This document shows positions 1,318-24,129 of a stretch of 64,000 nt of DNA, piece by piece. Position numbers and translations under genes: made by a program. Origin of the DNA: an uncultured Verrucomicrobiota bacterium (GTDB lineage Bacteria; Verrucomicrobiota; Kiritimatiellia; CAIQIC01; Lenti-01). Position 1 is the first letter of the stretch, and the number at the start of each line of letters is the position of its first letter. Below the pieces are notes generated by a model. It saw only the letters and a list, made by a program, of their open reading frames with translations. It did not search any database and was not told where the DNA came from. The DNA is taken from positions 112,799 through 176,798 of the forward strand of contig CALMNW010000014.1 in the NCBI GenBank assembly GCA_937872095.1, in the 5' to 3' direction.

Positions 1318-2454
1318 TTATACGCGCGGGGGCGCCGATGGCTCCTCCCCGCCGCCCCTCAAACGACGGCCAAGGTCATGCATAACGCATTGCCGAACCG
1401 GCCGGTTAACAATTTCTGCCGGAAAATGCCGCCAGAGGATTTTTCTCGCCTGTCGGTAGACGTCCGGCAGTCCGCTCCAGTATGCGTCCACCGCCACCTT
1501 CACGATGACCGCGCGCGCATAGCGGGAATCGGCCGCCAGCAGTGGGTCGATGTCGCCCGCCTCCGGAGCGCCGCTTGAAAAGGCTTGCAGCCGTTCTTGC
1601 GCCGCGCTCCGGATGGCCATCCGCCCATATTCCGTCCCCCAAAAAGAACGCTTCCAGCAGATCCGTTCGGACATCAGCTGGGTCAGAGAGTGTTCGGGAG
1701 CCAATCGAGCCGCCCCGACCGAGCGTTGAATGAACGCGTCGACGTTGTTGTACCCATCCCTCTTCTTGGCCGAATAGTAATGCCAAATCGCGGCATCTTG
1801 CGCCGTTTCGGGCGCATGGACGATTTGCGCATTGTAGCGATGCGGCAGGATCGAACATGTGGCGGGGGCTTCCCAAATCGCCGAGTTCAAGGCCGGCTGG
1901 TCCCGGTAGTCTTGGCGCCGGCGATAGGATTCCAGCCATTTTTCATGCCAGAGCCGATAGAACCGGTGCGCGCCGTCCGATTCGGAAGCGTAGAGCGCGC
2001 CGCCGTTCACGTAGACCGACGGACTGGTGCTCCACCCCATTTGCTTCAGGATGGCCTGGTCGATCCCGCTGATCTGGTGGGCGTACATCCCCCGCGAATG
2101 GTTTGGCGCGCCGCCCACGTCTCCCGGCACGGAAAAAATGGCCGAGAGATCGTCGCGAATGACCGTGTCGCTGTCCAAATACAGATACGGCCCGTCGATC
2201 CGCGAGCGCAAACTGGTCTTGATGAATCGGTTGCGGAAAACGGGAGATTCCGACGGCGTCTCGACAACCAACCAATCGTCGACCTCGCCGAGTAGCGGAT
2301 CCTGCCCCTGCCGTAGCGCCTTGTCCGTCTCCGCATCGCACGCCACCACCGTCTGGACCCCCGGATTCGTTTGCCGCAACGACGCCACCGAAATCCGCGT
2401 CATGGCGGTGTAGATGTCCCGACCGGACGAAGTGACGACGTAAACGGTTTTCAT
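1318..2454 (-). CDS. Putative glycosyltransferase (GT-A-like, DxD-type motif YLDSD)
   Basis: 378-aa ORF, MKTVYVVTSSGRDIYTAMTRIS N-terminus typical of nucleotide-diphospho-sugar transferases; YLDSDTVI DxD-like motif. Family not resolved by eye. Confidence 0.55.
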   Translation of the reverse strand: MKTVYVVTSSGRDIYTAMTRISVASLRQTNPGVQTVVACDAETDKALRQGQDPLLGEVDDWLVVETPSESPVFRNRFIKTSLRSRIDGPYLYLDSDTVIRDDLSAIFSVPGDVGGAPNHSRGMYAHQISGIDQAILKQMGWSTSPSVYVNGGALYASESDGAHRFYRLWHEKWLESYRRRQDYRDQPALNSAIWEAPATCSILPHRYNAQIVHAPETAQDAAIWHYYSAKKRDGYNNVDAFIQRSVGAARLAPEHSLTQLMSERICWKRSFWGTEYGRMAIRSAAQERLQAFSSGAPEAGDIDPLLAADSRYARAVIVKVAVDAYWSGLPDVYRQARKILWRHFPAEIVNRPVRQCVMHDLGRRLRGGGEEPSAPPRV

Positions 2455-2494
2455 TGGCCGGCGGGGCAGCGCGTTGCGTGCGTTTCTGACGGGA

Positions 2495-3154
2495 TCATCG
2501 TTCCGGTTTCTTTTGGAAAAGAAGATTGAAATACAGGCCCGCCCAGCGCGGCAACCCGTGCGGGAAACATCTGAATCGCCGAAGGATAAATTGGTTGTGC
2601 GCCGCCCGCACTACCTGCCGATACGTGGTCACATGGTGTTCATTGATCCCGTGGTAGCCGATCAGATCGAACAGCGGAACCATCAAGCGATCGACCCGGG
2701 GCATGCCGATCAGCAACTGGCCGTCCGGCTGCAGCAGGCGCGCGCAGGCCGCCAAAGCCGTCGACGGATCCGCCACATGTTCGAAGATGGAGAAGGCGAC
2801 GATCAGGTCGAAGCGCTCCTCGCCGGCGCTGAACGAAGCGATATCCCCCTTGTGCAACTCGGCTTCGATGCCGAGGCCCCGCAAGATCTTCCCGGTTGCC
2901 TGCGGGTCGGAAGCAAGATCAACGCCGGCCACGTGCGGCGCCAGCGTGACGAGGGTGGGCATCAACAACCCGCTGCCATAGCCAATTTCAAGGATTCGCG
3001 CATACGGAGGGCGCAGCAGGGAAAGCCCGGATTCGATCCGGCGGCGATATAGCGCGCCAACAACCGGACGGTAGTAGAAATGAAGCGGATCGTCGTAGAC
3101 GTCGTTGGGCTGGAGAACTCCCTCCGGCGGCAAAAGCAGTTTCAAACGCGCCAT
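2495..3154 (-). CDS. Class I SAM-dependent methyltransferase
   Basis: GxGxG motif ILEIGYGSGLL followed by acidic D (VDLASD) and a FSIFEHV motif. ORF-track start 3313 trimmed to internal ATG at 3154 (MARLKLLLPP), which places about 56 aa before motif I and leaves a 22-nt gap to the upstream stop at 3177. Confidence 0.75.
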   Translation of the reverse strand: MARLKLLLPPEGVLQPNDVYDDPLHFYYRPVVGALYRRRIESGLSLLRPPYARILEIGYGSGLLMPTLVTLAPHVAGVDLASDPQATGKILRGLGIEAELHKGDIASFSAGEERFDLIVAFSIFEHVADPSTALAACARLLQPDGQLLIGMPRVDRLMVPLFDLIGYHGINEHHVTTYRQVVRAAHNQFILRRFRCFPHGLPRWAGLYFNLLFQKKPER

Positions 3155-3176
3155 TTGGATTTCCCTTTCACCGCCG

Positions 3177-5132
3177 TCACTGCTTTTTCCGTCCTCGCCC
3201 ATCGGCGGCATACGCGACCACTTGCGCCCGATAGACCAGCCGCGAGCCGGCCACCGGAGCCATGCGGCAATAGGCGATTCCGTCGCGAAGCATTGGATCC
3301 TCGAAAATGACATACGGAAAGAACCGTGCCCCCTCTTGCAGGCTCACCACGCCGCTGGCCAGCCACTCGCCGGGCTGAATCCCGCGAATCGCGGGATCTT
3401 CGACCGGACAACTCCCCCCGGTCTGCCGCTGGAAGTCGGCCCAGCGGATTTGGGGAATGCGGGTGGCGGCATCGTCGGAAACCACGTGCAGGATCGAACC
3501 CTTGTGAATGCGCACGGGCACGGTTTCGGGAGGGACATCCGCCCCCGCCGGGTCCGGTCTCCGAAATGCGCGATGCGTCTTGCCGACCGCCGGCATGCAG
3601 AGCATCAAGGCCAGCAAGACGACCGGCACGACATAGGCTTCACGATAGCGCGAAGCGCTCGGCGCGACGGGCGGCGCATCGCATCGCCGCAACCGCTCGA
3701 GACACCCTTTCATGCCGATGGCCAACACCCCGCCGGTCATGGCAACGGTCGCGGCAAACACTCGATAGCCGACGTCCACCAGAAACGGCAGGGAAAGAAC
3801 AATGCCGCCCAGCGCGGCCCCGAGAGCCACCAAGAGCCTGCGCCGGCCTTCATCTTTTTCATACGCCAGCATGACGAAAAAGTAGATGAACGGCATCAGG
3901 AAAACCGTCAGTTCAACCGGAAAAGGGTACCAAGGATAGAGGCGGGCAAAAGGATGGATCAGGATGTCGCGATACCCCTCGGCCAGAGAGACAAATAGCG
4001 CAAACGGTTTCTCCCGGAGTTCCTGGCGCACAAGCCCATAGATCATCCGGGATCGCTGCGAATCCGAGAGTTCCATGAGTTCCGGATGCTCGGTCTTGAC
4101 ATAATCCCAGCCCTTGTTGCCCTTGATGATTCCATAGAGCGTATACGAGAAATTGCCGCCCAGAACGCCGCCCGTCGGCGGACCGGCCAGTCGCAACTCC
4201 GCCATATTCAGCAGAAACGGAAGGGCGATCGCCCCGACGCAAAGCGCGACCATCGGGATGCTGTATGTACGGGGCGCAGCAAAAATCCGGCCGGCGGCGA
4301 GGGCCAGCGCCGGCAGCACGAACAGGGCGCCGGCCCGGAGGGTAAACGCCACGCCCAGCAGGCCAAGCCCCAGCGCAAATGCCCCCTTGCGGCGAGTAAA
4401 CGCGCCTTGCGCCAAAAGCAGAAACCCAAAATTGCCGAAACACAGTCCCGGAATTTCGGTCATCGTGGTAGGCGCGAACGGCAGGATGAAATACACCTGC
4501 AGCAACAACGCCAGAAGCGCAGCCACGATGCCAAAGTGGTTGAAGATCCAGCGGCAAAACAGATAGATCGACAGAATCAGGATCGCGACGTTCACCACGA
4601 TGACGGCCATCAGGTTCTGACCGGTCGCCAATAGCAGCAAGGCGTAGTAGTTGGCCACCATGGGCTTTCGGGCCGACCATTCATCCAAAAATCCATGTTC
4701 CAACAGATTCCTCGCCCCCTGGAGATACCCATACGCATCGCTTTGCGGGACGAATCCGGCAATCGAAAAACCGCCGGAGATTCCGCCACTCCAGATCTTG
4801 TACAGTTTGGCCCCCAATAGCATGGCCGTCAGGATCAAGAGCAGCCAGCCGACAACCGGGCTCCGATTGAGCATCTGCTTGCGCGAAACCAGTTCATAGA
4901 TGCCCAGGGCAACCAGCACAAGCGGAAAGGGCAACTGGAGGGATGAGCCTGCGGCGCTCGATGCGGCGGCCCACAGATACAGGGCCAACGCCACGCCGAA
5001 CCCGCCCCCCATGGCAACGGTGGCCCATCCGTCCGTTTCGAGGCGGGTCCTCGCCGTGCGCAGAAAGTCCATCATGGGCCGCGACAATCCGCACAAGACC
5101 AAGCCGGCAAGTTTTTCGGCAAGATCGCCCAA
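3177..5132 (-). CDS. Polytopic integral membrane protein, probable GT-C-type glycosyltransferase or polymerase-like protein
   Basis: 651 aa with more than 10 hydrophobic helices and a soluble C-terminal domain of about 150 aa. Lies in the glycan locus. Family not assigned. Confidence 0.65.
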   Translation of the reverse strand: MGDLAEKLAGLVLCGLSRPMMDFLRTARTRLETDGWATVAMGGGFGVALALYLWAAASSAAGSSLQLPFPLVLVALGIYELVSRKQMLNRSPVVGWLLLILTAMLLGAKLYKIWSGGISGGFSIAGFVPQSDAYGYLQGARNLLEHGFLDEWSARKPMVANYYALLLLATGQNLMAVIVVNVAILILSIYLFCRWIFNHFGIVAALLALLLQVYFILPFAPTTMTEIPGLCFGNFGFLLLAQGAFTRRKGAFALGLGLLGVAFTLRAGALFVLPALALAAGRIFAAPRTYSIPMVALCVGAIALPFLLNMAELRLAGPPTGGVLGGNFSYTLYGIIKGNKGWDYVKTEHPELMELSDSQRSRMIYGLVRQELREKPFALFVSLAEGYRDILIHPFARLYPWYPFPVELTVFLMPFIYFFVMLAYEKDEGRRRLLVALGAALGGIVLSLPFLVDVGYRVFAATVAMTGGVLAIGMKGCLERLRRCDAPPVAPSASRYREAYVVPVVLLALMLCMPAVGKTHRAFRRPDPAGADVPPETVPVRIHKGSILHVVSDDAATRIPQIRWADFQRQTGGSCPVEDPAIRGIQPGEWLASGVVSLQEGARFFPYVIFEDPMLRDGIAYCRMAPVAGSRLVYRAQVVAYAADGRGRKKQ

Positions 5133-5228
5133 TATGCATTTCTTCCGACAGAAGCCATTTTGAGCAGAATAATCCGTCGCCCAGATCCCGTCAAAAGAAA
5201 ACCATCCCGCCGGCCGGTTGCACGAATT

Positions 5229-6059
5229 TTACCCTCGCGCGGATGCCTTCCCCGCGATCGTTTCCGGGCGGGGGACATTTCGAACCAACGTGATCAGCGC
5301 AAACATGGCGGACCGTTTTCCAACCGGTCCGAGCGCCCGTTCCAGCACGCGACAAGGACGATAGGCCCATCCAGGGGCCAGCGACCGCAGCGACACGCCC
5401 CCCGACAGCAGATAGGCAAAGGGCATGAGCGGTTCGATCCGGGTCGGCGACCATTCGGGAAATTGCCGCTCAAACTTGGATCGGTCCCGGACAAACAGAA
5501 TCCACGGCAACGCGCCATTGGCCCCCGACAAGGGACCCTGATCCGGGAAACCCCATTGTTCCGCCTCCGGCCGAAACGGCTCGGAATGAAAATGCCCATA
5601 CACGAACCGAGACCACGGCGTCACCCATGGCTCGATCATTACGATTGCGCCGCCCGGGCGAACCACGCGGGCGGCTTCGGTGAAAAACCGTTCGGGCGTG
5701 CCGATGTGATGCAACACGTCGGTCATGACGATGGCCCGGAGCGAGCCGTCCGCGAAGGGCAATATCCCGGTCGCAGGCAAAACCCGATCCACCCCGGCGA
5801 CGGGCAGGACGTCGGTAGTAACCAAGCCGGGAATCCACTCCTTCATGAACCCCGCTCCGGAACCCAATTCGACCACGGGATCCGCTCCACTCGGCAAGTG
5901 GCGGCGGATCAGCCCATACCACTCCTCGTAGAGCTGGAACAGAAAGCGTTTGTTCCGGATGATGGCGCGGCGCCGTTCGGTCGTCTGCGGATCGTCCACG
6001 TCCATTCCGCGAGTCGCGGGATGCAGCAGCCAGCCGGAGATGCGAGCAGCCGCGCTCAT
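5229..6059 (-). CDS. Class I SAM-dependent methyltransferase
   Basis: Motif I VVELGSGAGF, post-II DGSLRAIVMTDVLHHI (Methyltransf_11-like). ORF-track start 6356 trimmed to ATG at 6059 (MSAAARISGW); the upstream 100 aa are Gly/Arg-rich low-complexity. Confidence 0.75.
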   Translation of the reverse strand: MSAAARISGWLLHPATRGMDVDDPQTTERRRAIIRNKRFLFQLYEEWYGLIRRHLPSGADPVVELGSGAGFMKEWIPGLVTTDVLPVAGVDRVLPATGILPFADGSLRAIVMTDVLHHIGTPERFFTEAARVVRPGGAIVMIEPWVTPWSRFVYGHFHSEPFRPEAEQWGFPDQGPLSGANGALPWILFVRDRSKFERQFPEWSPTRIEPLMPFAYLLSGGVSLRSLAPGWAYRPCRVLERALGPVGKRSAMFALITLVRNVPRPETIAGKASARG

Positions 6060-6467
6060 GCAAGCGAACTCCTCCGAGCAAGGCAGCTGGCCGACATGGA
6101 CGGCACCCTGCGGCACCGCCGTTGAGAATCGAATAGACTCATGTGCACACAGGTCAGCATGCCGAAACATCCCGGAATTATCAAGCGGCGCATCTGCGTT
6201 TCGCCGAGATATTCGACCATTGCGGCCCCTGTCGGCCGGGAAAATGCCCGCAGGGGCTTTGCCGTCCCCGCCGCCGCAAATTCCGCAACCCGGCCGGACG
6301 ATCCATGGTCGGCCCAGCACCCGTACCCTCTCCGGCCCGACTGGCGCAAGCGACACTCGACAAACAGGTTTTATGGGGTCATATTGGACGCCTTGTAAGC
6401 CTTGTAAACAAACCAGGACGGCCCCAAAGCTCTGTCACGCCAACGCCCACGACCCGGAACCCCACCA

Positions 6468-7940
6468 ATGAAGGAAGTCGCCATGCAGGACGAAGTCATT
6501 CCAGGGCCGTTGCCCGCCGCGCTCACCGAGCGGAAATCGTTTGTCGAACGAATCTACCAAGAGCAGTTGCCGACTCGCGAGCGGGCCGTAAACCGGGCCC
6601 GTTATTATTATTTCAATCTCAAGCGCCTGCTGAAGTTCATCGTCGAACCGGGACGGCGCGTGCTGCAGATCCATTGCGACATCGGCCATCTGCTGGATGC
6701 GGTGGCCCCCGCGCGCGGCCTCGGCATTCACCCCAGTGCCGGCCATTTGGAAATCGCCCGCAAGAATTATCCCGATCTGGAATTCAGGCAGATGGATGCC
6801 CACGACTTCGCCTGCGACGAGAAATTCGACTACGTCATGCTGTGCAACGCCATCGGAGACATCGTCGACGTCGAAGCCACCCTGCTGCGTTGCCAGAAAG
6901 TCATGGCCCCTGAATCGCGGCTGGTCTTGGTCTGGACCAACTACCTGTGGCAACCCGTCTTCAAACTGGCTGAACGAATCGGGCTCAAGAGCCGGCAACC
7001 CACGTTGAACTGGTTTAGCCCGTCCGACGTGGAAAATCTGCTCTCCCTCACCGGATTCGAACCCGTCAAAGAAAATCAAGCTCTGTTGCTGCCGGTCTAC
7101 GTTCCCTTCGTTTCCTGGTTCCTCAACTCGGTTCTGGCCCGCATCCCGCCGTTCCACCGGCTCTGCTACGTGAAAAGCCTGGTGGCCCGACCGGTGAAAA
7201 CCCCGAGAACCTTGGCGCAACCTCGAGTATCGGTCATCGTCCCATGCAAAAACGAAGTCGACAACATCCAAGCGGCGGTAGAACGGATCCCGGCGCTGGG
7301 CAGCCATACCGAAATTGTTTTCTGCGACGACAAATCGACCGATGGCACGGCTGAAAAAGTCCGCGAAATGCAACGATTGCATCCGGAAAAAGACATCAAG
7401 CTGGTTGAGGGCCCAGGCGTCTGCAAAAGCCTCAACGTGTGGGCCGGCTTCGACGCGGCACAGGGCGACGTCTTGATGATTCTGGATGCCGACCTGACTA
7501 CCTTGCCGGAGGAACTCCCCTATTTTTATGCGGCCATCGCGGAGGGACGGGGAGAATTCATCAACGGCTCTCGAATGGTTTATCCAATGGCGGAGGATGC
7601 CATGAAGCCCCTGAACGTGCTGGGCAACAAACTGTTCAGCCTGGCCTTCTCCTATTTGCTGGGCCAGCGCATCAAGGACACGCTCTGCGGCACCAAGGTT
7701 CTGTGGAAGAAAGATTACGAGCGCATGAAGGCCTTGCGCGGCACCTGGGGGGTCATGGATCGCTGGGGAGACTACGAACTGATCTTCGGCGCCGCGAAGT
7801 TGAACTTGAAAATCGTCGATCTCCCGGTGCACTACGTGGAACGGATCCACGGCGAGACCAAGATGACCAAGCGCTTCAAAAACGCCGCCGTCATGGCCCG
7901 CATGTGCTTGGCCGCACTGGTCCGACTGCGTTTCGCCTAG
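6468..7940 (+). CDS. Bifunctional fusion: N-terminal class I SAM methyltransferase domain plus C-terminal GT2 polyprenyl-phosphate-type glycosyltransferase
   Basis: N-terminal half carries RVLQIHCDIGHLLD (motif I-like) and LCNAIGDIVDVE. C-terminal half is canonical GT2 (VSVIVPCKNEVDNI, FCDDKSTDGT, ILDADL, C-terminal ETKMTKRFKNAAVMARMCL as in DPM1/ArnC/GtrB-like enzymes). Confidence 0.85.
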   Translation: MKEVAMQDEVIPGPLPAALTERKSFVERIYQEQLPTRERAVNRARYYYFNLKRLLKFIVEPGRRVLQIHCDIGHLLDAVAPARGLGIHPSAGHLEIARKNYPDLEFRQMDAHDFACDEKFDYVMLCNAIGDIVDVEATLLRCQKVMAPESRLVLVWTNYLWQPVFKLAERIGLKSRQPTLNWFSPSDVENLLSLTGFEPVKENQALLLPVYVPFVSWFLNSVLARIPPFHRLCYVKSLVARPVKTPRTLAQPRVSVIVPCKNEVDNIQAAVERIPALGSHTEIVFCDDKSTDGTAEKVREMQRLHPEKDIKLVEGPGVCKSLNVWAGFDAAQGDVLMILDADLTTLPEELPYFYAAIAEGRGEFINGSRMVYPMAEDAMKPLNVLGNKLFSLAFSYLLGQRIKDTLCGTKVLWKKDYERMKALRGTWGVMDRWGDYELIFGAAKLNLKIVDLPVHYVERIHGETKMTKRFKNAAVMARMCLAALVRLRFA

Positions 7941-8021
7941 CTTGGATGATCCAGACAAGGCGGCCTCGCGCGCATGAGACCGCCGCGAACGCCGGCTCAA
8001 CAAACGGCGACGGCGCGTGTT

Positions 8022-9473
8022 TTATGTCCGTCGAGAACCGCCAAATCCACTCCGGATTCCGTGGATGACCGGCCACGCCAGGCTGCGTACGCGATCGCGC
8101 CAATAATGGCCAGGCCGGCATGGCAGGAGGCCGAAGCGCTGCCGCGCGAGATCGAATTGCGCCAGGACCACGACGTTGCGGATGGCGCCGGTCGCCTTCG
8201 CCCCCCGGTAGCTCTTCCAATGGCGATAAAGCCGATTCCATGCGGGGGCGAAGAGAAAGCCCAGCTTGTACAATTCGCCGTTGAAGGCATGCGCCTCCAG
8301 GCGTTCGGCCAACTCGTTCCGGCACCAGCGCTCGTAATCGTGGTAGTCCGTCAGCAGTTCGGGATCCGTTTCTTTCGTCGTCCCATCGGGCGCCACTCCG
8401 GTGCGCGCCCAGGGCAGGCTGTACAACCGGGCGTCCAGCTGCTTGAACGCCTGCGCATAGATCGCGCCGTCGCGCATGAACGGGCACAAGCCCCACATGA
8501 ACCCGACGACCGGATCGCTGGTGAACGCTTGATGGAACCCCGTGAACACCCGGATCCGGTCCATGGCGTGGCCGATCCATCGCCGCATGTAGTTTTCCTG
8601 CTGGTGATGCTCCCATTTGATGCAATCCGGACCGTCCGCGACCAAGGCCCAGGACGAAGCGATGTCTTCCCGCGCTTGGCGGAAGCACTCCTCTTCGAGA
8701 AACGGGTGGATCAATTGCGCGTTGTTCTGCAGACGAGGGCCCTGCAGGTTCAGCAGGTGGACCCCGCTGAATTCCGCCCGGCCGATGCTGTCCCCATAGC
8801 TCGCGGCAATGACCAGATCGTCTTTCGCGGCATGTTCGAACCAGTTCATCGCGTGCAGATGGGTGCCCGCGATCTCCGCCCCGCCCCAGGTCGCCATGCA
8901 TTCGACGTTTTTCCAGGTCCAATCGGCGCCATAGGGAACGTGGACGAAGTCCCAGCCGAATCCTTCCGCGAGCCGGCGCGCATACTGGACGTCCCGGCTC
9001 TTTTCGAAGCCCCAGGAGACCACCACGATTTCGGCGCGGATCTGCTGCCGCGCCCGATGCAGCACCCCCGCGACCATGCGGCTGTCGTAGCCGCCGGTCA
9101 GCAGCAGGTATACTTTTTTGCGGGAACCGATGGCCTCGAGGAGTTCCGCCTCCAGCAGGCGGCACAGTTCCCGGGCGGCCTCGGCGGGATCCATGTGCGC
9201 GAGTCCGTGCGGAATCGGCGGCAGGCGCGCAATCGTCCCGTCCTCCATCAGTTCCGCGCGCCACGGCATTTTTTTGACGGAGGGGACCAGCGTCCGCATG
9301 CCGCACATGTGATGGAAATTGAAGATTTCCAGGATGCCGACCGGATCCACGATCCGCTCGGCCGGCGGCACGGCCAGAATCGCTTCTTCGGCCGTCAAAT
9401 AGACCCGCTGGGGTTGCGCGTTCCCGATGAAATAGGGAGAGACGTTCCCGAAATTCGCCGTCCTGCAAATCAT
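8022..9473 (-). CDS. Asparagine synthetase-like amidotransferase, PP-loop ATP pyrophosphatase domain only (WbpS/AsnB-like)
   Basis: PP-loop YLLLTGGYDSRMVAGV (SGGxDS-type) about 120 aa from the N-terminus. No class-II glutaminase (N-terminal Cys) domain is present. Overlapped by long spurious ORFs 7974..9944(+) and 7891..9468(-). Confidence 0.8.
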   Translation of the reverse strand: MICRTANFGNVSPYFIGNAQPQRVYLTAEEAILAVPPAERIVDPVGILEIFNFHHMCGMRTLVPSVKKMPWRAELMEDGTIARLPPIPHGLAHMDPAEAARELCRLLEAELLEAIGSRKKVYLLLTGGYDSRMVAGVLHRARQQIRAEIVVVSWGFEKSRDVQYARRLAEGFGWDFVHVPYGADWTWKNVECMATWGGAEIAGTHLHAMNWFEHAAKDDLVIAASYGDSIGRAEFSGVHLLNLQGPRLQNNAQLIHPFLEEECFRQAREDIASSWALVADGPDCIKWEHHQQENYMRRWIGHAMDRIRVFTGFHQAFTSDPVVGFMWGLCPFMRDGAIYAQAFKQLDARLYSLPWARTGVAPDGTTKETDPELLTDYHDYERWCRNELAERLEAHAFNGELYKLGFLFAPAWNRLYRHWKSYRGAKATGAIRNVVVLAQFDLARQRFGLLPCRPGHYWRDRVRSLAWPVIHGIRSGFGGSRRT

Positions 9474-9522
9474 GCTGGGCTCCGCCTCGTCTTTGCCGCG
9501 CTGGAAGGGCCGGCAGCCATGT

Positions 9523-10287: not shown

Positions 10288-10299
10288 TTGCCCAACCAA

Positions 10300-11073: not shown

Positions 11074-11082
11074 GATCAGCTC

Positions 11083-12348
11083 CTAGTCGGCATGAAGGGT
11101 GGACTTGACCGACAGGTGCACGCTGCCGGTCGAATTTTCCGGAGGAGCAACCTTGAGTTTGATCCTGCGTTTCCAGTCGTACAACTCGGTGAAATCCGGA
11201 TTCCAAAAAATCACGCTGAATAAAATCGTCGGGTACGTGAAGGGCATGGCGGCGACATCCAGAAAAACAGTGCCCCGGCTGCCCTTTTTGCCGCAGACGC
11301 GGAGCTGTTCGTCCCCGCGATGTTGATGGAGTATCCCGCTCCGGTCGCTAACGGTCAATTCCAGGAAGGAATCCAAATCCTCGTCGGTCCCCTTGACATA
11401 GCCTACCGCCACCCGCAAGGAATCGCCCGTGCGGATCGTGTCGCACTTTTTCCCTTCGTCGTTGATGAAATCCACGGATACGATTTGAATGCGACCGGAA
11501 CCCGCGATTTCCCCTTCCACGCCCTGTTCCCGGTCGGGCAATCGGGCCGACGTTTCGATCGCCATGTCGTTTCCATATCGCGTCACGACCGCATCCGTCT
11601 TTCCGTCGAACAGGATTTGACCGCGATTTAAATACAAGGCTCGATCGCAATAGCGGGAGATATTGAGCATGTTGTGGGAAACCATGATGAAGGCCGTCCC
11701 CTTGGCGCGCAAAGTGCCGAGGCGATTCAGGCACTTCGCCTGAAAATTCATGTCCCCCACGGCCAACACTTCGTCCAGCAGCATGATGTCGGGACTCAAC
11801 GAGGATGCCACGGAGAACCCCAACCGCACGGCCATGCCGGAACTGTAGTTCTGCACGGGGGTGTCCATGAACTCGCCGATCTCGGCAAAATCGATGATCT
11901 CGTCCATCTTGGCGTCGATTTCCCGCTTGGAGAGGCCCAAAACCGAGGCGTTGACGTAGATGTTCTCCCGCCCGGTCAGGATGGGATTGAAGCCCGCGCC
12001 GAGGGCGATGAGCGCCCCGACCCGCCCCCGCATCTCGATCCGGCCCGAGTCGGGCTTGATCAGGCCGTTGAGCATCTTGAGGAGCGTGGTCTTGCCCGCC
12101 CCGTTCCGGCCGATCAGCCCGACGCTTTCCCCGCGTTTTAGTTCGAAGCTGACATCCTTGACCGCCCAGAATTCCTTGGGCCGAAGCCCGCCATGCCCCC
12201 CGTGTCGCCGCCCGAGCAATTCGTTGCCGATGTCTTTCAACCCGTAGAAAAGCGACTTCTTCAGGCTAAGACAGAACTTTTTCGAAACGCCTTCGACCCG
12301 GACCAGGACGTCGGAATCGGAATTCGAATTGTTTTCCGAGCTCTTCAT
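11083..12348 (-). CDS. wzt: Polysaccharide ABC transporter ATP-binding protein Wzt (TagH-like) with C-terminal substrate-binding extension
   Basis: Walker A GRNGAGKTT, ABC signature YSSGMAVRLGF, Walker B MLLDEVLAVGD, H-loop SHN. About 160 aa after the NBD look like a jelly-roll carbohydrate-binding domain, as in Wzt proteins that recognise capped O-polysaccharide termini. Confidence 0.9.
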   Translation of the reverse strand: MKSSENNSNSDSDVLVRVEGVSKKFCLSLKKSLFYGLKDIGNELLGRRHGGHGGLRPKEFWAVKDVSFELKRGESVGLIGRNGAGKTTLLKMLNGLIKPDSGRIEMRGRVGALIALGAGFNPILTGRENIYVNASVLGLSKREIDAKMDEIIDFAEIGEFMDTPVQNYSSGMAVRLGFSVASSLSPDIMLLDEVLAVGDMNFQAKCLNRLGTLRAKGTAFIMVSHNMLNISRYCDRALYLNRGQILFDGKTDAVVTRYGNDMAIETSARLPDREQGVEGEIAGSGRIQIVSVDFINDEGKKCDTIRTGDSLRVAVGYVKGTDEDLDSFLELTVSDRSGILHQHRGDEQLRVCGKKGSRGTVFLDVAAMPFTYPTILFSVIFWNPDFTELYDWKRRIKLKVAPPENSTGSVHLSVKSTLHAD

Positions 12349-12429
12349 ATTTCGGTCAGAATGATCAAGATCGGCTGGATTTACAAGATTGAACCGCCGG
12401 GCGCGCGCCGGGCGAAATCGTTCGCTTCG

Positions 12430-13275
12430 TCACGCCGACATCCGCTCGATCAAAATCGGCATGGACAGCCGGTAGCCGACCCAGGAAACGAACAGCAGTC
12501 CAAGCGCGGCCAGATTGACGCCGATGAACGTGGCCACGAATTCCGGCGATTGCCCCGTCAGCCAAGCCCGGGCGTTGAGAATCAGCGGAGTGACGGGATT
12601 CAGGACGAAGATCTTGGCCACCAGCCCGCCCCCTTGCGGCATCGGAAACACGACGGGGGTCACGTACATCAGGAACTGCATCACCATCGGCAAGGCACGC
12701 CCCACGTCGCTGTAGAGCATGCCCATCGGAGTGATGAACAGCCCGATGGCGGTTCCCGTCAGGATGATGGCAAACACGCCGACCGGGAACATGAGCAACC
12801 CCCAGCCGGGATTCACTTTGAAAAACGGCAACACGCACAACAGCAGCGCGATCTTGATCGAGGCGTTGAACAGCGTCCGGTAGATGCCTGCCAGCAACAG
12901 CGCCTCCCGCGGAAAATTCAATTTGGCCAGCATGCCGCGGGCCGCATTCGTCTGCCCCATCGGCGCGTTGATCGAATCCATGAAAATGGCCCAAAGCATC
13001 GTTCCGGCAAAGACATAGACCGGATACGGGATGGGCGTCTCCTGGATGGCCACGATGCCGGAACCATTCAGGAACAACCACACCATCGTGTTGGCCAACG
13101 GCAAAATCAGCGCCCACAGGATGCCGAGGAAGGATTGGCGGTATTGCGCGCTGACGTCGCGCACCGTCAGGCGCCAAGCCAATTCGCGCCCGGCCCACAG
13201 ATCCTTCGCCATGGCTTTCGCCATGACGAACGGATTCGCCAGCGACGAGTCGGGAGTGTAGATGGTCGTTTTCAT
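12430..13275 (-). CDS. wzm: ABC-2 type polysaccharide exporter permease Wzm
   Basis: 281 aa with 6 TM helices, ABC-2 family layout, immediately upstream of and co-directional with wzt. Confidence 0.9.
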   Translation of the reverse strand: MKTTIYTPDSSLANPFVMAKAMAKDLWAGRELAWRLTVRDVSAQYRQSFLGILWALILPLANTMVWLFLNGSGIVAIQETPIPYPVYVFAGTMLWAIFMDSINAPMGQTNAARGMLAKLNFPREALLLAGIYRTLFNASIKIALLLCVLPFFKVNPGWGLLMFPVGVFAIILTGTAIGLFITPMGMLYSDVGRALPMVMQFLMYVTPVVFPMPQGGGLVAKIFVLNPVTPLILNARAWLTGQSPEFVATFIGVNLAALGLLFVSWVGYRLSMPILIERMSA

Positions 13276-13403
13276 GGATGGGTCCAGTTCCTATACCCCA
13301 TGCCGTCTTTCAGTCCAAGGTTTTTCGGCCCAACGACTCCAAGCAAACCCCTTTCCCGCGCCCGACTCGAATCCGCGCGGTCATTGCGCTCGATGCCCGC
13401 GGC

Positions 13404-14546
13404 CTACTTTTTCCATCTGGCTTCGAACCGACCCGTCCAGGCATCCCCTGCGGCTTGCAGCAAGGCCGCGTTCACCCCCCAAAACGCTCCCAGCAACCCC
13501 AACAGACGCGAAGAAATCCGCTTTCCACCCCAAAAGGCCATGAAACTGACGAAAATTGCGCCCAAAGCCCCTAAAAACGACATCTGGAGCCACTTTGGGC
13601 CATCCCAAGCCAGCCAACCCATTGAAAAATAGGCCAAAACAACGAAAAATGGGGTCAAAAGCCTTAAAAACTTGTGCGAAACCCATTGAAACCAGATCGG
13701 ATTGGCTAAAATGGAGTAAATTTGGGGCTCCAAGTGTCCCATTTGCCAAATTCCGGCCAACGTTCGGCGTTTTCTGAGCCCTTCTTGGCCAAAATGGGCC
13801 GTCGGAAGGTCGAAAACGCGCGCGGAAGGCTCGAAAAGGCAGCGAAACCCCTTCAAAACGGCTCTCATGGGGATCAACACGTCGTCCACCAGCGTATTTT
13901 CCGGAATGGGACCCGCCAGCTCGCTCCGAATGGCATAGAACGCCCCGGTGGCGCCGGGAACCGCCCAGTGGCGGCTCTCGCAGAGCCGGATGAATTTCTC
14001 GTATCCCCAATAGGATTCCGCCCCTTTTTGCGCGCCGCCGTCTGCCGACTCGTACACGAGCGCCCCCGAGACCGCACCGACCCGCTCATCCGCGAAATTT
14101 TCCAGAAGCCGGGAAATCGCGCCGGCCTCCACCCGCTGCCGGGCATCCATCAGGACGAAAACGGGTTGGTCGGCTTTCGCCATCAGGTCGTTCAGCACCG
14201 CGGCCTTGCCGCGCTGGCGCTCGAGTTCGAGGAGCTGGACGAGCGCGCCATTTTCCGCCCGATCCAAAACGCCGCGGACCTGCGCCGACGTTCCATCCGT
14301 GCAGCCGTCGAGTCCGATCCAGATTTCGCGAATGGGTTCGGTCTGCGCCAGATCCAGCAGGTTTTCCACTTTGCGCGGCAAGGTCTCCGCTTCGTCGTGC
14401 GCGGCGATCAGCACCGCCGCCCCGCCCGCGAAGGGCCCCTTCTTCACGGGCCGGCCTCGGATCCGCGACAGCAGCCAGATCAACGCCGGATAACCCGCGT
14501 AGACGTAGCCCAACAAGAGGACCCCTATGGCGAAAACCCATCGCAT
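13404..14546 (-). CDS. GT2 family glycosyltransferase with C-terminal transmembrane helices
   Basis: GT-A GT2 core (AAVLIAAHDEAETL, LDGCTDGT, LMDARQ DxD-like, QGLRKRRTLAGIWQ QxxRW-like) followed by 3-4 TM helices. Confidence 0.85.
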   Translation of the reverse strand: MRWVFAIGVLLLGYVYAGYPALIWLLSRIRGRPVKKGPFAGGAAVLIAAHDEAETLPRKVENLLDLAQTEPIREIWIGLDGCTDGTSAQVRGVLDRAENGALVQLLELERQRGKAAVLNDLMAKADQPVFVLMDARQRVEAGAISRLLENFADERVGAVSGALVYESADGGAQKGAESYWGYEKFIRLCESRHWAVPGATGAFYAIRSELAGPIPENTLVDDVLIPMRAVLKGFRCLFEPSARVFDLPTAHFGQEGLRKRRTLAGIWQMGHLEPQIYSILANPIWFQWVSHKFLRLLTPFFVVLAYFSMGWLAWDGPKWLQMSFLGALGAIFVSFMAFWGGKRISSRLLGLLGAFWGVNAALLQAAGDAWTGRFEARWKK

Positions 14547-14608
14547 GGCACTTCAGTACCTGAATTTTCCGGACGATTCAATCCGGCGGTTCGGCCGCGC
14601 GGATCCGG

Positions 14609-15571
14609 TTACGGCTTCGGACCGGCGGATTCGTCCGCCGGAGCGGCCGGCTCGACGACCTCCGCGATCGCCTCGGGACTTTGGTTGATTTCCGTATAGA
14701 TGCGCCAGACGTATTCGCCCAGCACGCCCATCATGATGAACCCGCACCCCTGGAAAAACCCCACCAGCGACACGATCGTGGCGTAGCCCGGCACGGGAAT
14801 GATGCCCAACGCCTTGGCCACGAAAATGAACGCCACGTACAGAAAACAGACGAACGCCAGCCCGAAGCCCAACAGGGTCATCAGCCGCATCGGCTTGACC
14901 GAAAACCCCACGGTCGAATCGATGAAATAATTCACCTTCTTCCGGAACGTCCATTTCGATTTGCCGTAGGGCCGGTTTTCCCGGTGGTAGGACAAGAGCG
15001 TGGCCGGCACGCCCAGCGACCAGGCAAACAAGGACAGATTCTTGTTGTGCCCGCAGCGGAGCATGTGCGGCAGGAACAGGCGGTCCATGATCGCCATGTC
15101 GAACCCGCCGATCGGAAAATCCTTCATGACCAGCGCCCGGACGAGCCGATAGTTGAGCCAGGCGAAAAACTTGGTCAACGGCGGGTCCTCCCGCGAAGCC
15201 CGGGTCCGCACCACGAAGCGGCTGCCCGCCAGCCAGGCAGCCACCATTTCCGGCAGCAGTCCGGGCGGATCCTGCAGGTCCGCCGCCAAGAAGGTGAAGC
15301 AATCCCCCTTCACGTGGGCGAAGCCCGTCTTGATGGCCGCCATCGATCCGCGGTTGGCCAAATGGTTGACGACCACCGTTCCGGGCCGGCGGCGCTGGAT
15401 TTCCCGCAGACGGTCGAGGGAGGCGTCGCCGGACGCGTCGTTCACGAAGATGAGCTGCAGGTCCACTCCCCGCTCCGCCAATTCCTTTTCCACCCGGTCC
15501 AATTCGTCCGCCAGGGGAATGAGCGAGTCCTGGTTGTAGTAGACCGGCACGACGATGGAGAGCGTGGGCAT
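14609..15571 (-). CDS. GT2 polyprenyl-phosphate glycosyltransferase (ArnC/GtrB/DPM-synthase-like) with two C-terminal TM helices
   Basis: LSIVVPVYYNQDSL, FVNDASGD, LAADLQDPP, KSKWTFRKKVNYFIDSTVGFSVKPMRLMTLLGF; ATG at 15571. Confidence 0.88.
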   Translation of the reverse strand: MPTLSIVVPVYYNQDSLIPLADELDRVEKELAERGVDLQLIFVNDASGDASLDRLREIQRRRPGTVVVNHLANRGSMAAIKTGFAHVKGDCFTFLAADLQDPPGLLPEMVAAWLAGSRFVVRTRASREDPPLTKFFAWLNYRLVRALVMKDFPIGGFDMAIMDRLFLPHMLRCGHNKNLSLFAWSLGVPATLLSYHRENRPYGKSKWTFRKKVNYFIDSTVGFSVKPMRLMTLLGFGLAFVCFLYVAFIFVAKALGIIPVPGYATIVSLVGFFQGCGFIMMGVLGEYVWRIYTEINQSPEAIAEVVEPAAPADESAGPKP

Positions 15572-15574
15572 CGT

Positions 15575-16681
15575 TTATCCTCGGGTTGAGATGACGGCTT
15601 GCACGGCGGCGGCGACGGCTTCCGGCGCGGCGAGATGGGGCCCGATCGGCAGGCTGAGTTCTTCCGCCGCGATTCGTTCCGCCACGGGAAAGTCGCCCGC
15701 CTGGCGCCCCTGGTGCGCATAGGCCCCCGACAGATGGGGCGGAATCGGATAATGGATCTGGGTGTGAATGCCGTTGGCTTCCAACCGGGCCTGCAGGCCG
15801 TCGCGATCTTTCGCCAACAGAGGAAAGAGATGCCAGATCGGTTCCGCGTCTTTCGCCACGGCGGGCAACTGGATGCCCTCCAGACCCCGCAACCGTTCGC
15901 GATAGGCTGCCGCGATCTGGACCCGCCGCCGGTTCCATTCGTCCAGATGCTTGAGCTTCACCGACAGAAAAGCGGCCTGCAGGGGATCCAGGCGCGAATT
16001 CAAGCCCAACACCTCGTGCTGGTACTTGCGATCCGACCCGTAGTTGCGCAGGCGGCGCAAACGCGCGGCCAGGGCTTCGTCGCCGGTCGTCACCGCGCCG
16101 CCGTCGCCGAAGGCCCCCAGATTTTTGCCGGGATAGAAACTGAAGCCCGCCAAATCTCCCCAGGTTCCGGTGCGGCGCCCCCGGTAGCGGGCGCCGTGGG
16201 CCTGCGCGGCGTCTTCCACGACGACGAGACGATGGCGGCGCGCCACCGCGAGGATGGCGTCCATGTCCGCCGGTTGCCCGTAGAGATGCACCGGCATAAT
16301 CGCTTTGGTCCGGGGCGTGAGGGCCGCCTCGATCCGCGCGGCATCCAGATTGTAGGTGTCCGCCCGGACGTCCACGGGCACGGGCACGGCCCCCGCGTGG
16401 CTGACGGCCAGCCACGTGGCGATGAACGTCATCGCCGGAACGATCACTTCGTCGCCCGGTCCGATGCCCGCCGCCAGCAGCGCCAACGTCAGCGCATCCA
16501 GGCCGTTGGCGACGCACACGCAATGCCGTACGCCGCAATACGCCGCGAATTCCGCCTCGAAGCGCTCGACCTCTTCGCCCAAAATATACCACCCGCTGGC
16601 CATCACCCGCCGATAGGCCGCGTCGAGGTCCTCCTGCAGTTCGGTATAGGCCGGGAGCAATTCCAGAAAGGGAACGTTCAC
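15575..16681 (-). CDS. DegT/DnrJ/EryC1/StrS-family PLP-dependent sugar aminotransferase (FdtB/QdtB-like)
   Basis: N-terminus VNVPFLEL..., [34 protein letters not shown] (PLP-Lys region). The ORF-track N-terminal extension is Arg-rich. True start is GTG at 16681, overlapping the upstream stop as GTGA. Confidence 0.88.
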
Positions 16682-17103
16682 GCCTGGGCCTTCCGGGTTG
16701 CCGCGATGAAATCGTCGTAGCGGCGGTAATAATCCGCTTCGTCGAAATATTCCGAAGCCAGCACGAGACAGACCGAGCCGGACGAGAAGTTGTCGATGGT
16801 CCGCCAAATCATCGGGCAGAGATAAAGCCCGTGGTAGGACCGATTGAGGTGATAGGTCTTCTTCTCGAACCCATCGTCCAAATGGATGTCGAAACTGCCC
16901 GACATGGCCACCACGAGCTGGTGCAGCTGCTTGTGCGCATGCCCCGCCCGCTCGGCGCCGCCGGGCACGTCGTAGAGATAGTAGACCCGCTTGATGTCGA
17001 ACGGCAAATGGCGGCCGCCCTCGATGAAAGTCAAATTGCCGCGCGGTTCGCGGACGATCGGCAGATCGACGATGCGCACGTTCTGCATTGGATTCGAGCT
17101 CAT
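16678..17103 (-). CDS. Cupin-type dTDP/NDP-4-keto-6-deoxyhexose 3,4-ketoisomerase (FdtA/QdtA/WxcM C-terminal-domain-like)
   Basis: [19 protein letters not shown]..., [18 protein letters not shown]. The 389-aa track ORF is about 250 aa of Arg-rich wrong-frame read-through plus this 141-aa domain starting at ATG 17103, which has a GGAAAGGGAAGGG RBS-like stretch upstream. Confidence 0.75.
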
Positions 17104-17126
17104 TCCAAACCCTTCCCTTTCCGGCG

Positions 17127-17771
17127 TCAGGAATATGGCCGATCCGTCAGCCGGGGCTCCCGCACGCATTCCAGTTCCGAAACGTGGCCGGACACGCGGG
17201 CGGGGTTGCCCACGACCACCGCTCCGGGCGGCACGTCCCGCGTGACGACGCTGCCCGCCCCGACCAGCGCCCCTGCGCCGATGGTCACGAGCGGCAATAT
17301 CGTGGCGTTGACCCCGATCTGCGCCCCCTTTTTGATTGTCGGCCCCTTCATGCACTCCCGGGAATGGGCGCAGCCCGGATGGAGATCGTTGGCGATCATG
17401 ACGCCCGGCGCCAGAAACACGTCGTCCTCCAAGATCGTGAATTGGGCCACGTAGACGTTGTGGTGGATCTTGACCCGGTGGCCGATCGTGCAGCCGTAGT
17501 CGACCGCGGAATTCGACCACAGCGAAAAATCGTCTCCGATGGCGTTTTCTTCCCGGATGATGGCGTTGTGGCCGACGTTGAGGCGCGCGCCGATCTGGGA
17601 TCCGGCATAGATCACCGAACCCGACCGGACGACGGCTCCGGGTCCGATCCGCAAGTTCAATCGGGCGATGCGGCGCTCGGGCAGGCAACCGATCCGCGCC
17701 GAATCGGCGCAGTCGATGTCGCTCGCGATCTGGAGCAGGTCGCCGTCGACGATCCCTGTTCTGTCCTTCAC
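17127..17771 (-). CDS. Left-handed beta-helix (hexapeptide-repeat) sugar N-acetyltransferase (FdtC/WbpD/PglD-like)
   Basis: Hexapeptide repeats ([22 protein letters not shown]..., [63 protein letters not shown]). Start uncertain: GTG at 17771 with a GAGGAAA RBS-like stretch chosen; the track start 18200 adds an implausible Arg/Pro-rich 140 aa. Confidence 0.7.
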
Positions 17772-17948
17772 CCTGATTTCCTCGTTTCTTCGCGGAACCC
17801 TGCCGGCGGCGGCGAAAAACGGCCCGCCGCGGCGGCCGAACCGCCATTTCGATCTCGGAAAGTATGCAAGAGGGAGCAACGCCCTGTCAATCAAGGACCG
17901 ATTGCGGGCACGGAACGGATTTGCCTTTATGTGGCGCGGCGTTTTTGA

Positions 17949-18965
17949 TTGATTGAGCCGGAGATGCACCGCTCCCCGTCTATCCTCACCAATCTGGCCT
18001 TCCAGCAGAGCCGAATCTGGCAAGAAGCGGTCGCCACCATCTGCCGGCCCGGCGAATCGCCGGATCGTCTGGGCGCTTTGCGGCAGGGAATCCGGCTCCT
18101 GCTCCGGCGGCGGCGTTTCGACGTGGTCGTGACGATGGGCCCGCGCCCTTCCCTGGCGTATGGCCTGCTCTGCGGACTTCTCCGCCGGCCCGCCCGGCAC
18201 GTCATGACCGAGGTGTTTCTGGACGAAGCCCGTCCCGCTTGCCCGTCTTGGCGCCTCAAAACGGCCTTGTTCCGCTGGGTGGCCCAGCGCGCGCTGGGCA
18301 TCTTGACGAACAGCACGGCCGAGGTGGGGCTCATCGCCGAGCGGTTCGGGATCCCCGCGGCCAACCTGCGTTTCGTTCCGATGTATACCACGCTCCCCCA
18401 GCCCGGCAGGCGGGAACCAAACGACGGCAGCGTCGTTTCCATCGGACGCACGCGGCGCGATCTGGACGTTTTGGTCGCGGCGGCGCGGCGGATTTCCGCC
18501 CGCGTCGTCGTGGTGGCCGGCCGGCGGGAAACTTTACCCGCCGATTTGCCGCCCAACGTGGAGGTGTTCCGCGAAATCCCGCTCGCCCAAACCCATGAAC
18601 TGCTGGCCCAGGCGGCCGTGGCCGTGGCGCCTTTGCTGCCGGCGGAAAGATCCACCGGCCAAGTCTTCATCTTCGAGGCCATCGCCATGGGCAAACCCGT
18701 GGTCGCGACCCGGAGCATCGGTACCGTCGACTACATCCGCGACGGCGAGAACGGCGTGCTGGTCGAACCGGGCGACGCCGCCGCCCTGGCCGATGCCGTC
18801 GAACGGCTGCTCCGCGATCCCGCCCTGGCCCGGCGCCTGGCGACGAACGCGCTGGACGAATGCCTGTCTTCCTGGCTGCCGGACCATCATGCCCAGCGAA
18901 TGCTCACGGCCATCGGCGAGCTGTGGTCGGCCAGCCGCGCGGCAAGGAATTCACCGGCGCCATGA
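17949..18965 (+). CDS. GT4 family (GT-B fold) glycosyltransferase
   Basis: C-terminal GT-B signature FIFEAIAMGKPVVATRSIGTVDYIRDGENGVLVEPGDAAALADAVERLL (EX7E). Exact start (17949 vs ATG 17964) uncertain. Confidence 0.8.
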   Translation: MIEPEMHRSPSILTNLAFQQSRIWQEAVATICRPGESPDRLGALRQGIRLLLRRRRFDVVVTMGPRPSLAYGLLCGLLRRPARHVMTEVFLDEARPACPSWRLKTALFRWVAQRALGILTNSTAEVGLIAERFGIPAANLRFVPMYTTLPQPGRREPNDGSVVSIGRTRRDLDVLVAAARRISARVVVVAGRRETLPADLPPNVEVFREIPLAQTHELLAQAAVAVAPLLPAERSTGQVFIFEAIAMGKPVVATRSIGTVDYIRDGENGVLVEPGDAAALADAVERLLRDPALARRLATNALDECLSSWLPDHHAQRMLTAIGELWSASRAARNSPAP

Positions 18966-24085: not shown

Positions 24086-24129
24086 GCCCCGCCTTGCCAC
24101 CACGGCCCCCGCCCGCTAATCTCTCCTCC

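Follow-up and report, generated by a model that had tools for sequence, protein, structure and literature searches.

To our knowledge, almost all that is understood of the cap-gated export of glycans by the ATP-binding cassette (ABC) transporter Wzm/Wzt comes from Proteobacteria and Aquifex, where a coiled-coil terminator sets the chain length. In the characterised capped systems this terminator, of the WbdD/WbbB type, carries a coiled-coil molecular ruler (PMC11231755). Here we describe a glycan locus at positions 1318-20944 of a 64,000-nucleotide stretch of DNA (hereafter 'the window') from an uncultured Verrucomicrobiota bacterium (metagenome-assembled contig CALMNW010000014.1 of 231.6 kb, positions 112,799 to 176,798), in which wzm and wzt are found together with amino-sugar genes, glycosyltransferases (GTs) and several S-adenosylmethionine (SAM) dependent methyltransferases (MTs). 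Our reading, to which we assign a probability of roughly 0.55, is that this is a composite envelope-glycan locus of a bacterium of the Planctomycetes-Verrucomicrobia-Chlamydiae (PVC) group, combining three kinds of machinery. A polymer would be built in the cytoplasm, by a membrane GT2 (13404-14546), a GT4 enzyme (17964-18965) and possibly a GT8-like enzyme, and exported by Wzm/Wzt, with the jelly-roll domain of Wzt gating export on a modified non-reducing terminus made by a TylF-like and a MycE/TylE-like MT. A GtrB-type enzyme would load a dTDP-3-acetamido-3,6-dideoxyhexose (dTDP, thymidine diphosphate) onto polyprenyl phosphate, and a membrane enzyme of the GT-C class would attach this amino sugar to the exported polymer as a side branch, in the manner proposed for Xanthomonas wxcK-O. 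Finally, a set of four genes that we refer to as module A (an MT-like/GT2 fusion, the MTs MT1 and MT2, and the membrane protein TM651) would make another lipid-linked sugar donor. Its methylation would probably take place at the cytoplasmic face, and TM651 would transfer its sugar outside the cytoplasm to an acceptor, which might be the Wzm/Wzt polymer or a different molecule.

The capped ABC O-polysaccharide systems of E. coli O8/O9a, K. pneumoniae O3/O5/O7/O12 and A. aeolicus share with the locus Wzm and a Wzt with a jelly-roll carbohydrate-binding domain (CBD), and likewise have the methyl-stacking Trp conserved and MT genes beside wzt. Unlike them, the locus has no WbdD/WbbB-type terminator, the candidate cap enzymes being small MTs of the TylF and MycE types; WecA and WaaL are not encoded locally, and the identity of the CBD to solved CBDs is just 13-16%. 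The closest precedent for the candidate cap enzymes is found in macrolide biosynthesis. TylE and TylF methylate a 6-deoxyhexose first at O-2 and then at O-3, and TylE/TylF and MycE/MycF, encoded by adjacent genes of the same two families as the pair considered here, act on adjoining hydroxyl groups of a terminal 6-deoxyhexose that has already been attached. In contrast, the present pair is part of a glycan locus and not of a polyketide cluster, and its MycE-like member (258 versus 419 residues) is devoid of the ∼160-residue N-terminal auxiliary domain of MycE.

For the amino sugar, the relevant precedent is the wxc cluster of Xanthomonas campestris, where the wxcK-L-M-N-O block provides side branches of 3-acetamido-3,6-dideoxygalactose (Fuc3NAc) on a rhamnan exported by Wzm/Wzt (PMC12573098). 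The locus shares with it Wzm/Wzt and, for a branch of 3-acetamido-3,6-dideoxyhexose, a GT2 together with an aminotransferase (DegT), an isomerase (FdtA type) and an acetyltransferase. It differs in that isomerase and acetyltransferase are separate genes (WxcM being a fusion), that a GtrA-like homologue of WxcN/O is missing, and that its GT2 can be explicitly identified as a GtrB. The logic of three-component periplasmic glycosylation has been laid out previously (PMC11127046). With such systems (GtrA/GtrB/Gtr*, ArnC/ArnEF/ArnT and the Citrobacter GT136 system) the locus has in common polyprenyl-phosphate sugar synthases (14609-15571 and the GT2 half of the fusion) and, in TM651, a protein with a predicted GT-C fold, while a flippase gene is absent and module A has its synthase joined to an MT-like domain in one protein, with SAM-dependent MTs as partners. 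Cap-gated Wzm/Wzt export and lipid-linked side-branching are known kinds of machinery; the locus departs from them by the absence of a ruler-type terminator and by the module of fusion, MTs and GT-C-like protein, a description of which was not found in the literature searched.

The exporter and the two MTs that we consider as candidate cap makers are encoded as follows:

12430-13275, minus strand: Wzm, ABC-2 permease with six hydrophobic segments (Pfam ABC2_membrane)
11083-12348, minus strand: Wzt, nucleotide-binding domain (NBD; Pfam ABC_tran) followed by the C-terminal CBD (residues 262-421; window 11086-11565)
10300-11073, minus strand: sugar O-MT of the TylF/MycF/NovP family (Pfam TylF, 137 bits), 9 bp downstream of wzt
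9523-10299, minus strand: MycE/TylE-like sugar O-MT, catalytic domain only (PDB 3ssm, MycE), abutting the TylF-like gene with a gap of 0 bp

A first-pass annotation, made from the sequence without database searches, had proposed export by the ABC route and a binding domain at the C-terminus of Wzt. The domain matches of Wzm and Wzt support an ABC-transporter-dependent route. The NBD matches that of A. aeolicus Wzt with an E-value of 6.6e-62 and contains Walker A (GRNGAGKT), signature (YSSGM) and Walker B (IMLLDE) motifs as well as the H-loop. The tail of ∼160 residues that follows was modelled with AlphaFold2 from a 40-sequence alignment (A1), which yielded an all-β sandwich with a mean predicted local distance difference test (pLDDT) score of 89.9, that is, neither disorder nor a fold unrelated to carbohydrate-binding modules. 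In a Foldseek comparison with the PDB, the best 17 matches to this model are exclusively CBDs of Wzt proteins, namely from A. aeolicus, R. terrigena O12 and E. coli O9a (PDB entries 6o14, 8dky, 5hno, 2r5o; template-modelling (TM) scores 0.64-0.73, root-mean-square deviations mostly 2.4-2.7 Å). Among PDB sequences, the A1 profile matches the A. aeolicus CBD best, with an alignment that spans the entire domain, and most full-length relatives of the protein (>95% query coverage) have the Pfam domain Wzt_C. On the strength of the predicted fold we thus classify the tail as a genuine Wzt-type CBD.

The only invariant residue of the CBD family is a Trp (W392 of Wzt, motif ELYDW), which is aligned with the Trp of the ECYHW motif of the A. 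aeolicus CBD. With a numbering offset of 251, chain residues 95, 97, 99 and 102-104 of the latter are T, A, H, M, D and H, matching Thr346, Ala348, His350, Met353, Asp354 and His355 (PMC9445017), so that the aligned Trp is Trp362. In A. aeolicus, Trp362 stacks on the 3-O-methyl group of the cap and the substitution W362L abolishes binding (PMC9445017). Moreover, the CBD is 32-37% identical to its closest relatives, while the same proteins are 57-65% identical over their full length; faster divergence of this kind would be expected of a ligand-specific module. In our view, the CBD would gate export through its binding of a modified non-reducing end, and the exporter probably checks for a methylated chain end.

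The MTs encoded immediately downstream of wzt are candidates for making such a terminus. The top two PDB relatives of the TylF-like protein, 5i10 and 4cdz, are annotated only as probable O-methyltransferases, and all solved relatives with a named function (NovP, MycF, CalS11) are sugar O-methyltransferases. Its motifs ECGVWRGG and LRLDTDWYSST are conserved: in the alignment to 5i10, GVWRGG is matched and LRLDTDWYSST lies opposite LRLDGDLYEST (SAM loop and acidic DxD motif). The MycE-like protein matches 3ssm over residues 73-212 (E 7.7e-6), starting at residue 199 of the 419 residues of MycE, and matches TylE (8ia9) more weakly (E 0.25); its Pfam match to Methyltransf_24 (19 bits) is below the cut-off. 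Gaps of 9 and 0 bp separate wzt, the TylF-like gene and the MycE-like gene, and an identical gene order, with both MTs 47% identical to those of the window, is found in a Binatia metagenome-assembled genome (MAG; locus L004), where ATP-grasp genes of TupA-like type, an MT of CmcI type and a GT8-like gene come next. Two further related loci (L001, L003) likewise have MT genes directly after wzt. The recurrence of MT genes right after wzt, along with the rapid divergence of the Wzt tail, fits MTs that make the ligand of the CBD, and by analogy with the macrolide enzymes the pair most likely makes the export terminus, in the form of an O-methyl or di-O-methyl sugar.

The second kind of machinery is represented by four genes of the same operon:

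17127-17771, minus strand: left-handed β-helix (LbH) N-acetyltransferase, FdtC/QdtC-like (Pfam Hexapep, 4 repeats)
16678-17103, minus strand: dTDP-4-keto-6-deoxyhexose 3,4-ketoisomerase of FdtA/WxcM-C type (Pfam FdtA, 184 bits)
15575-16681, minus strand: sugar aminotransferase of DegT/FdtB type (Pfam DegT_DnrJ_EryC1, 422 bits), overlapping the FdtA gene by 4 bp
14609-15571, minus strand: polyprenyl-phosphate GT of GtrB/ArnC type (full-length match to GtrB, 5ekp)

The first three enzymes would together constitute the standard route to a dTDP-3-acetamido-3,6-dideoxyhexose, either Fuc3NAc or its gluco epimer Qui3NAc, the galacto and gluco forms being indistinguishable at this level. The fourth is a GtrB, matching 5ekp over residues 4-299 (E 1.8e-40) and ArnC with E ∼1e-33, and has two C-terminal transmembrane helices (233-251 and 255-273). 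The presence of this enzyme next to the Fdt genes points to a polyprenyl-phosphate-linked amino-sugar donor that is used by a GT-C enzyme after export. RmlA/RmlB-like genes are located at 37918-39805, 20 kb from the Fdt genes, within a second sugar-gene block (35140-42905) that comprises an epimerase, a PMT_2-type GT-C (36042-37889), an RmlA-like nucleotidyltransferase, a 4,6-dehydratase, a 314-residue protein without assignment, a GT14 'Branch' enzyme and a UDP-galactopyranose mutase. This block probably supplies dTDP-4-keto-6-deoxyglucose to the Fdt genes. The FdtA, DegT and LbH genes, the GtrB/ArnC nature of 14609-15571 and an AsnB-like gene described below were all absent from the first-pass annotation.

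The third kind of machinery, module A, consists of:

6468-7940, plus strand: fusion of an MT-like domain (residues 1-240) and a Dpm1/ArnC/GtrB-like GT2 (residues 250-490; Pfam and NCBIfam, AglJ-like)
5229-6059, minus strand: MT2, class I SAM-dependent MT (Pfam Methyltransf_11, 39 bits)
3177-5075, minus strand: TM651, candidate GT-C-fold membrane GT (from fold comparison; no Pfam match)
2495-3154, minus strand: MT1, class I SAM-dependent MT (Pfam Methyltransf_23/11/25/12/31, with Methyltransf_23/11 above the curated cut-offs)

The GT2 half of the fusion resembles dolichyl-phosphate mannose synthase (5mlz), ArnC and GtrB in the PDB and AglJ in NCBIfam, and the N-terminal domain scores narrowly above the cut-offs of Methyltransf_23/25/11. 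Members of the fusion family are >50% identical across phyla, with the best named match (80%) in Kiritimatiellia and relatives in Deltaproteobacteria and in Magasanikbacteria of the Candidate Phyla Radiation (CPR). In the locus nearest with respect to TM651 (L084), the order is fusion, MT2 (84%), TM651 (66%) and MT1 (80%), with a GT8-like gene (49%) a few genes on; another locus has fusion, MT and a TM651 homologue (32%) in order between transhydrogenase and exonuclease genes. Three more loci (L085, L086, L087) have the fusion near small MTs and large membrane proteins, no Wzm or Wzt being found within their 8-10 kb flanks, and L085 groups fusion, large membrane protein, DegT and GtrB-like GT2.

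A broader survey of metagenome neighbourhoods, for which 80 loci were fetched and 72 had an observable flank, supports this association. An MT2 orthologue (threshold ≥38% identity; 39-55% observed, most 49-55%) lies at most two genes from the fusion in 12 of the 72 loci, and immediately downstream in at least 9, while a small class I MT resembling MT1, MT2 or the N-terminus of the fusion is present within the same distance in 33. Among the 60 loci having at least three neighbouring genes, 32 encode a polytopic protein of at least 420 residues within three genes of the fusion, and these large partners are very diverse in sequence. Since the unit is met again in further phyla and among housekeeping genes, without Wzm/Wzt in flanks of roughly 8-10 kb, its three MT domains belong to a self-contained module which is not specific for ABC-exported glycans. 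In five loci (L145, L158, L152, L134, L139) three to five large polytopic GT-C-like genes surround a single fusion gene, as if many transferases drew on the lipid-linked donor of one synthase. Some polytopic partners carry C-terminal tetratricopeptide repeats (TPR), and TPR-bearing GT-C enzymes include protein-directed ones.

For TM651, an AlphaFold2 model has pLDDT values of 70-90 in the membrane core, and its Foldseek comparison yields high probabilities for GT-C enzymes only, so that the protein, as modelled, has a GT-C fold. This relationship is seen by fold comparison only: the family profile matched no PDB sequence, and its hhalign comparison with the PMT_2 protein of the window was likewise negative. 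From 9 word-index matches the family had at first looked rare, a notion that was rejected when an exhaustive search with a hidden Markov model (HMM), run on sequences clustered at 50%, gave at least 2249 representatives. Among 57 diverse members, 53 have no Pfam match and 4 match PMT_2; all 57 share an invariant Asp (D113; motif SDAxxYYxDAxRLLEG) in the first extracytoplasmic loop. Ten longer relatives of 800-980 residues (P0263, P0266-P0268, P0272, P0278, P0282, P0305, P0314, P0350) have an N-terminal extension of 200-350 residues, in which a check for a fused MT or GT2 found no Pfam domain.

A literature search retrieved no paper describing an MT/GT2 fusion with a GT-C partner or with SAM-dependent MT partners. 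It is possible, although we regard it as doubtful, that the fusion, one or more SAM-dependent MTs and the largely Pfam-dark GT-C family represent an uncharacterised, phylum-spanning system, in which a sugar would be SAM-modified (e.g., methylated on polyprenyl phosphate) and transferred extracytoplasmically, here feeding methylated residues to the ABC-exported polymer. We propose to view such a system as a 'methyl-sugar' variant of the three-component GtrB/GT-C paradigm.

The locus as a whole is completed by five genes:

18962-20944, plus strand: TM694, 660-residue polytopic membrane protein, its ATG overlapping the GT4 stop by 4 bp
17964-18965, plus strand: GT4 (Pfam Glyco_trans_1_4, Glycos_transf_1)
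13404-14546, minus strand: membrane GT2 (Pfam Glycos_transf_2, Glyco_trans_2_3) with one N-terminal and three C-terminal hydrophobic segments
8022-9473, minus strand: AsnB-like PP-loop ATP-pyrophosphatase (Pfam Asn_synthase, residues 116-179 only), last gene of the wzm-wzt unit
1318-2454, minus strand: GT8-like GT of the GT-A type, weak assignment (Pfam Glyco_transf_8, 18.8 bits, below the cut-off; LgtC, E 0.059)

With a G+C content of ∼62%, raw lists of open reading frames (ORFs) of the window are noisy. The reading frame was therefore picked for each region by the G+C content at third codon positions (GC3), domains were assigned by Pfam, NCBIfam and PDB searches, and start codons were refined using orthologues and overlapping stop and start codons. 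This led to revised starts for the genes at 3177-5075, 17964-18965 and 18962-20944, and to a GTG start at 17771 for the LbH acetyltransferase. The genes listed in the first-pass annotation were recovered at their positions, and so was the co-occurrence of Wzm/Wzt with enzymes of the GT2 (13404-14546, 14609-15571 and the C-terminus of 6468-7940), GT4 (17964-18965), GT-A (1318-2454, weakly, as GT8) and GT-C-like types. The genes form four transcription units. The first, on the minus strand from 17771 to 8022 with intergenic gaps of -4 to 128 bp, has the order LbH acetyltransferase, FdtA, DegT, GtrB-like GT2, membrane GT2, Wzm, Wzt, TylF-like MT, MycE-like MT, AsnB-like. The second consists of the fusion alone on the plus strand (6468-7940), diverging across a 408-bp spacer from the third, which runs on the minus strand from 6059 to 1318 (MT2, TM651, MT1, GT8-like GT). 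The fourth, on the plus strand (17964-20944), comprises GT4 and TM694. The AsnB-like protein has no glutaminase domain (the NCBIfam alignment begins at model position 146) and only weak PDB matches.

The best wzt loci in the genome collection that was searched (species representatives) are from Verrucomicrobiota MAGs, with a top match of 58%, and the nearest relatives by best matches are MAGs of Kiritimatiellia and Verrucomicrobiota. Common to the window, L001 and L003 is a core of TM694 orthologue, GT4, DegT, GtrB-like GT2, membrane GT2, Wzm (78%) and Wzt (58-65%), while the amino-sugar tailoring enzymes and MT families of L001/L003 are unlike those of the window and module A is missing. Wzm orthologues adjoining wzt in L001, L003 and L012 are 77-79% identical. 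Orthologues of the membrane GT2 (67%) lie upstream of wzm in L001 and L003; the protein matches 6yv7 (E 8.5e-13), which we take to be PcManGT, a minimal cellulose-synthase-like GT fold. Those of GT4 (59-66%) and TM694 (42-48%) stand side by side in the same two loci. TM694 has ∼10 hydrophobic segments in the same loop layout as TM651; BLASTP detects no similarity between the two proteins, and the HMM of the TM651 family does not detect TM694. The GT8-like gene has orthologues both near wzt (L004, 37%; L016, 34%) and near TM651 orthologues (L083, 46%; L084, 49%). As a separate observation, L001, the closest related locus, has between wzm and wzt (9584-9988) a small four-helix-bundle protein of bAvd/23S_rRNA_IVP type, and a protein of this type is also encoded directly upstream of wzt in L002.

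Several observations weigh against the composite reading. With respect to the cap, the window Wzt scores 21.7 bits against Wzt_C, below the curated cut-off of 30.4, and the similarity of the A1 profile to PDB sequences is marginal (E 0.019). The MT families that follow wzt differ between relatives, so that a methyl cap is no more than plausible. Domain accounting, carried out without a dedicated coiled-coil predictor, finds at the locus no terminator that has a kinase domain or a ruler of the coiled-coil type: the MT proteins comprise 219-276 residues and the fusion is fully occupied by its two domains, leaving no room for a ruler. With respect to the remaining machinery, Pfam scans found no initiating enzyme of WecA/WbaP type and no WaaL in the window, and no ORF of 70-200 residues with at least three hydrophobic segments, as expected for a GtrA/ArnEF-type flippase, is present anywhere in the window. 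TM694, without a Pfam or NCBIfam match, has no family assignment, and the overall pLDDT of the TM651 model is only 61. Finally, of the five SAM-dependent MT domains put forward in the first-pass annotation, four have canonical signatures, whereas in the fifth, at the N-terminus of the fusion, the glycine loop is atypical. Throughout the family (alignment of 120 members) the loop reads R/H-C-[QED]-T-G instead of the canonical E/DxGxGxG, the first and second Gly of GxGxG being kept in 4 and 3 of the 120 members, respectively. The acidic residue of β2 is E/D in 107 of the 120, but is His in the window protein and missing from its clade. Judged from these residues, the activity of the domain is doubtful and it may be non-catalytic.

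The first-pass annotation had further concluded that all five MT domains act on a single ABC-exported polymer with a heavily O-methylated backbone and a methyl cap, and that five MTs in one locus is well beyond what is typical. We consider the single-polymer reading distinctly improbable. The genes are contiguous within 20 kb and separated by short gaps, the GT8-like gene bridges the modules by virtue of its orthologues on both sides, and the nearest TM651 locus, L084, is itself rich in MTs; yet three of the five domains (2495-3154, 5229-6059 and the N-terminus of the fusion) belong to module A, which is located on transcription units separate from wzm-wzt. In addition, fusion, MT2 and GT-C-like genes recur without Wzm/Wzt in the flanks examined, both among housekeeping genes and in so distant a genome as that of a CPR bacterium, and the GT2 half of the fusion resembles lipid-phosphate sugar synthases rather than polymerases. 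The density of MTs is also less exceptional than had been stated, since loci with 3-5 MTs recur among the environmental relatives examined, in an anecdotal comparison of five related loci. Taken to the opposite end, the gene sets might be independent and juxtaposed by chance, with module A modifying an unrelated acceptor such as lipid A/core, protein or peptidoglycan. That module A is found alone elsewhere, that its GT-C partners are extremely diverse and in some cases carry TPR domains, and that the core relatives L001 and L003 lack it would all agree with this view. We nevertheless think it unlikely, because glycan loci are typically modular and still functionally linked, the GT8-like gene links both sets, and L085 brings the fusion and a large membrane protein together with DegT and a GtrB-like GT2.

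A further alternative concerns the nature of the cap. The CBD might bind a non-methyl terminus (3-acetamido-3,6-dideoxyhexose, an AsnB-amidated acid sugar, or one resembling 3-deoxy-D-manno-octulosonic acid (Kdo)), with the TylF- and MycE-like MTs modifying internal residues or nucleotide-sugar precursors. The R. terrigena O12 CBD, with a Kdo cap as its ligand, is no poorer a match to the model than the methyl-binding CBDs are, the TylF relative CalS11 acts on TDP-rhamnose and not on a finished glycan, and the AsnB-like gene shares the operon with wzt. Against these points stand the invariance in the CBD family of the Trp equivalent to Trp362 of A. aeolicus and the fact that MT genes, not Fdt genes, abut wzt both here and in L004, so that we rate a non-methyl terminus as rather improbable. 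Taken together, we prefer the composite locus with a methylated export terminus.

Outside the locus and the second sugar-gene block, the window encodes further proteins of possible relevance to glycans and the cell surface. A giant ORF of at least 4288 residues (51101-63967, minus strand) runs off the window end; it has Pfam matches in one part only (immunoglobulin-like HYDIN/ASH/DUF1573, lamin-tail domain, fn3) and probably encodes a very large protein of the cell surface. A β-helix protein of 5969 residues likewise stands at the end of the related locus L001. At 24094-25845 (plus strand), a nucleotidyltransferase is fused to an APH-type kinase domain, which could be a salvage enzyme of the sugar-1-kinase/nucleoside-diphosphate-sugar pyrophosphorylase type. 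Adjoining the second sugar block (42911-48687, plus strand) are two adjacent α-amylase-family proteins with CBM48, of the glycogen/starch-type branching or debranching kind, one of which comprises 1190 residues and has an extra weak match to CBM53 below the cut-off.

If our reading is true, a locus of the PVC group that has a CBD, no ruler protein and O-MTs of the TylF and MycE types would show that the export signal can be produced by another route. Of greater use in our judgement, and the most interesting lead of the locus, is module A: the conserved fusion, >50% identical from CPR bacteria to Kiritimatiellia, is together with MTs and a GT-C family of almost no Pfam coverage a candidate for a new glycosylation route via lipid-linked donors that concerns many uncultured lineages.

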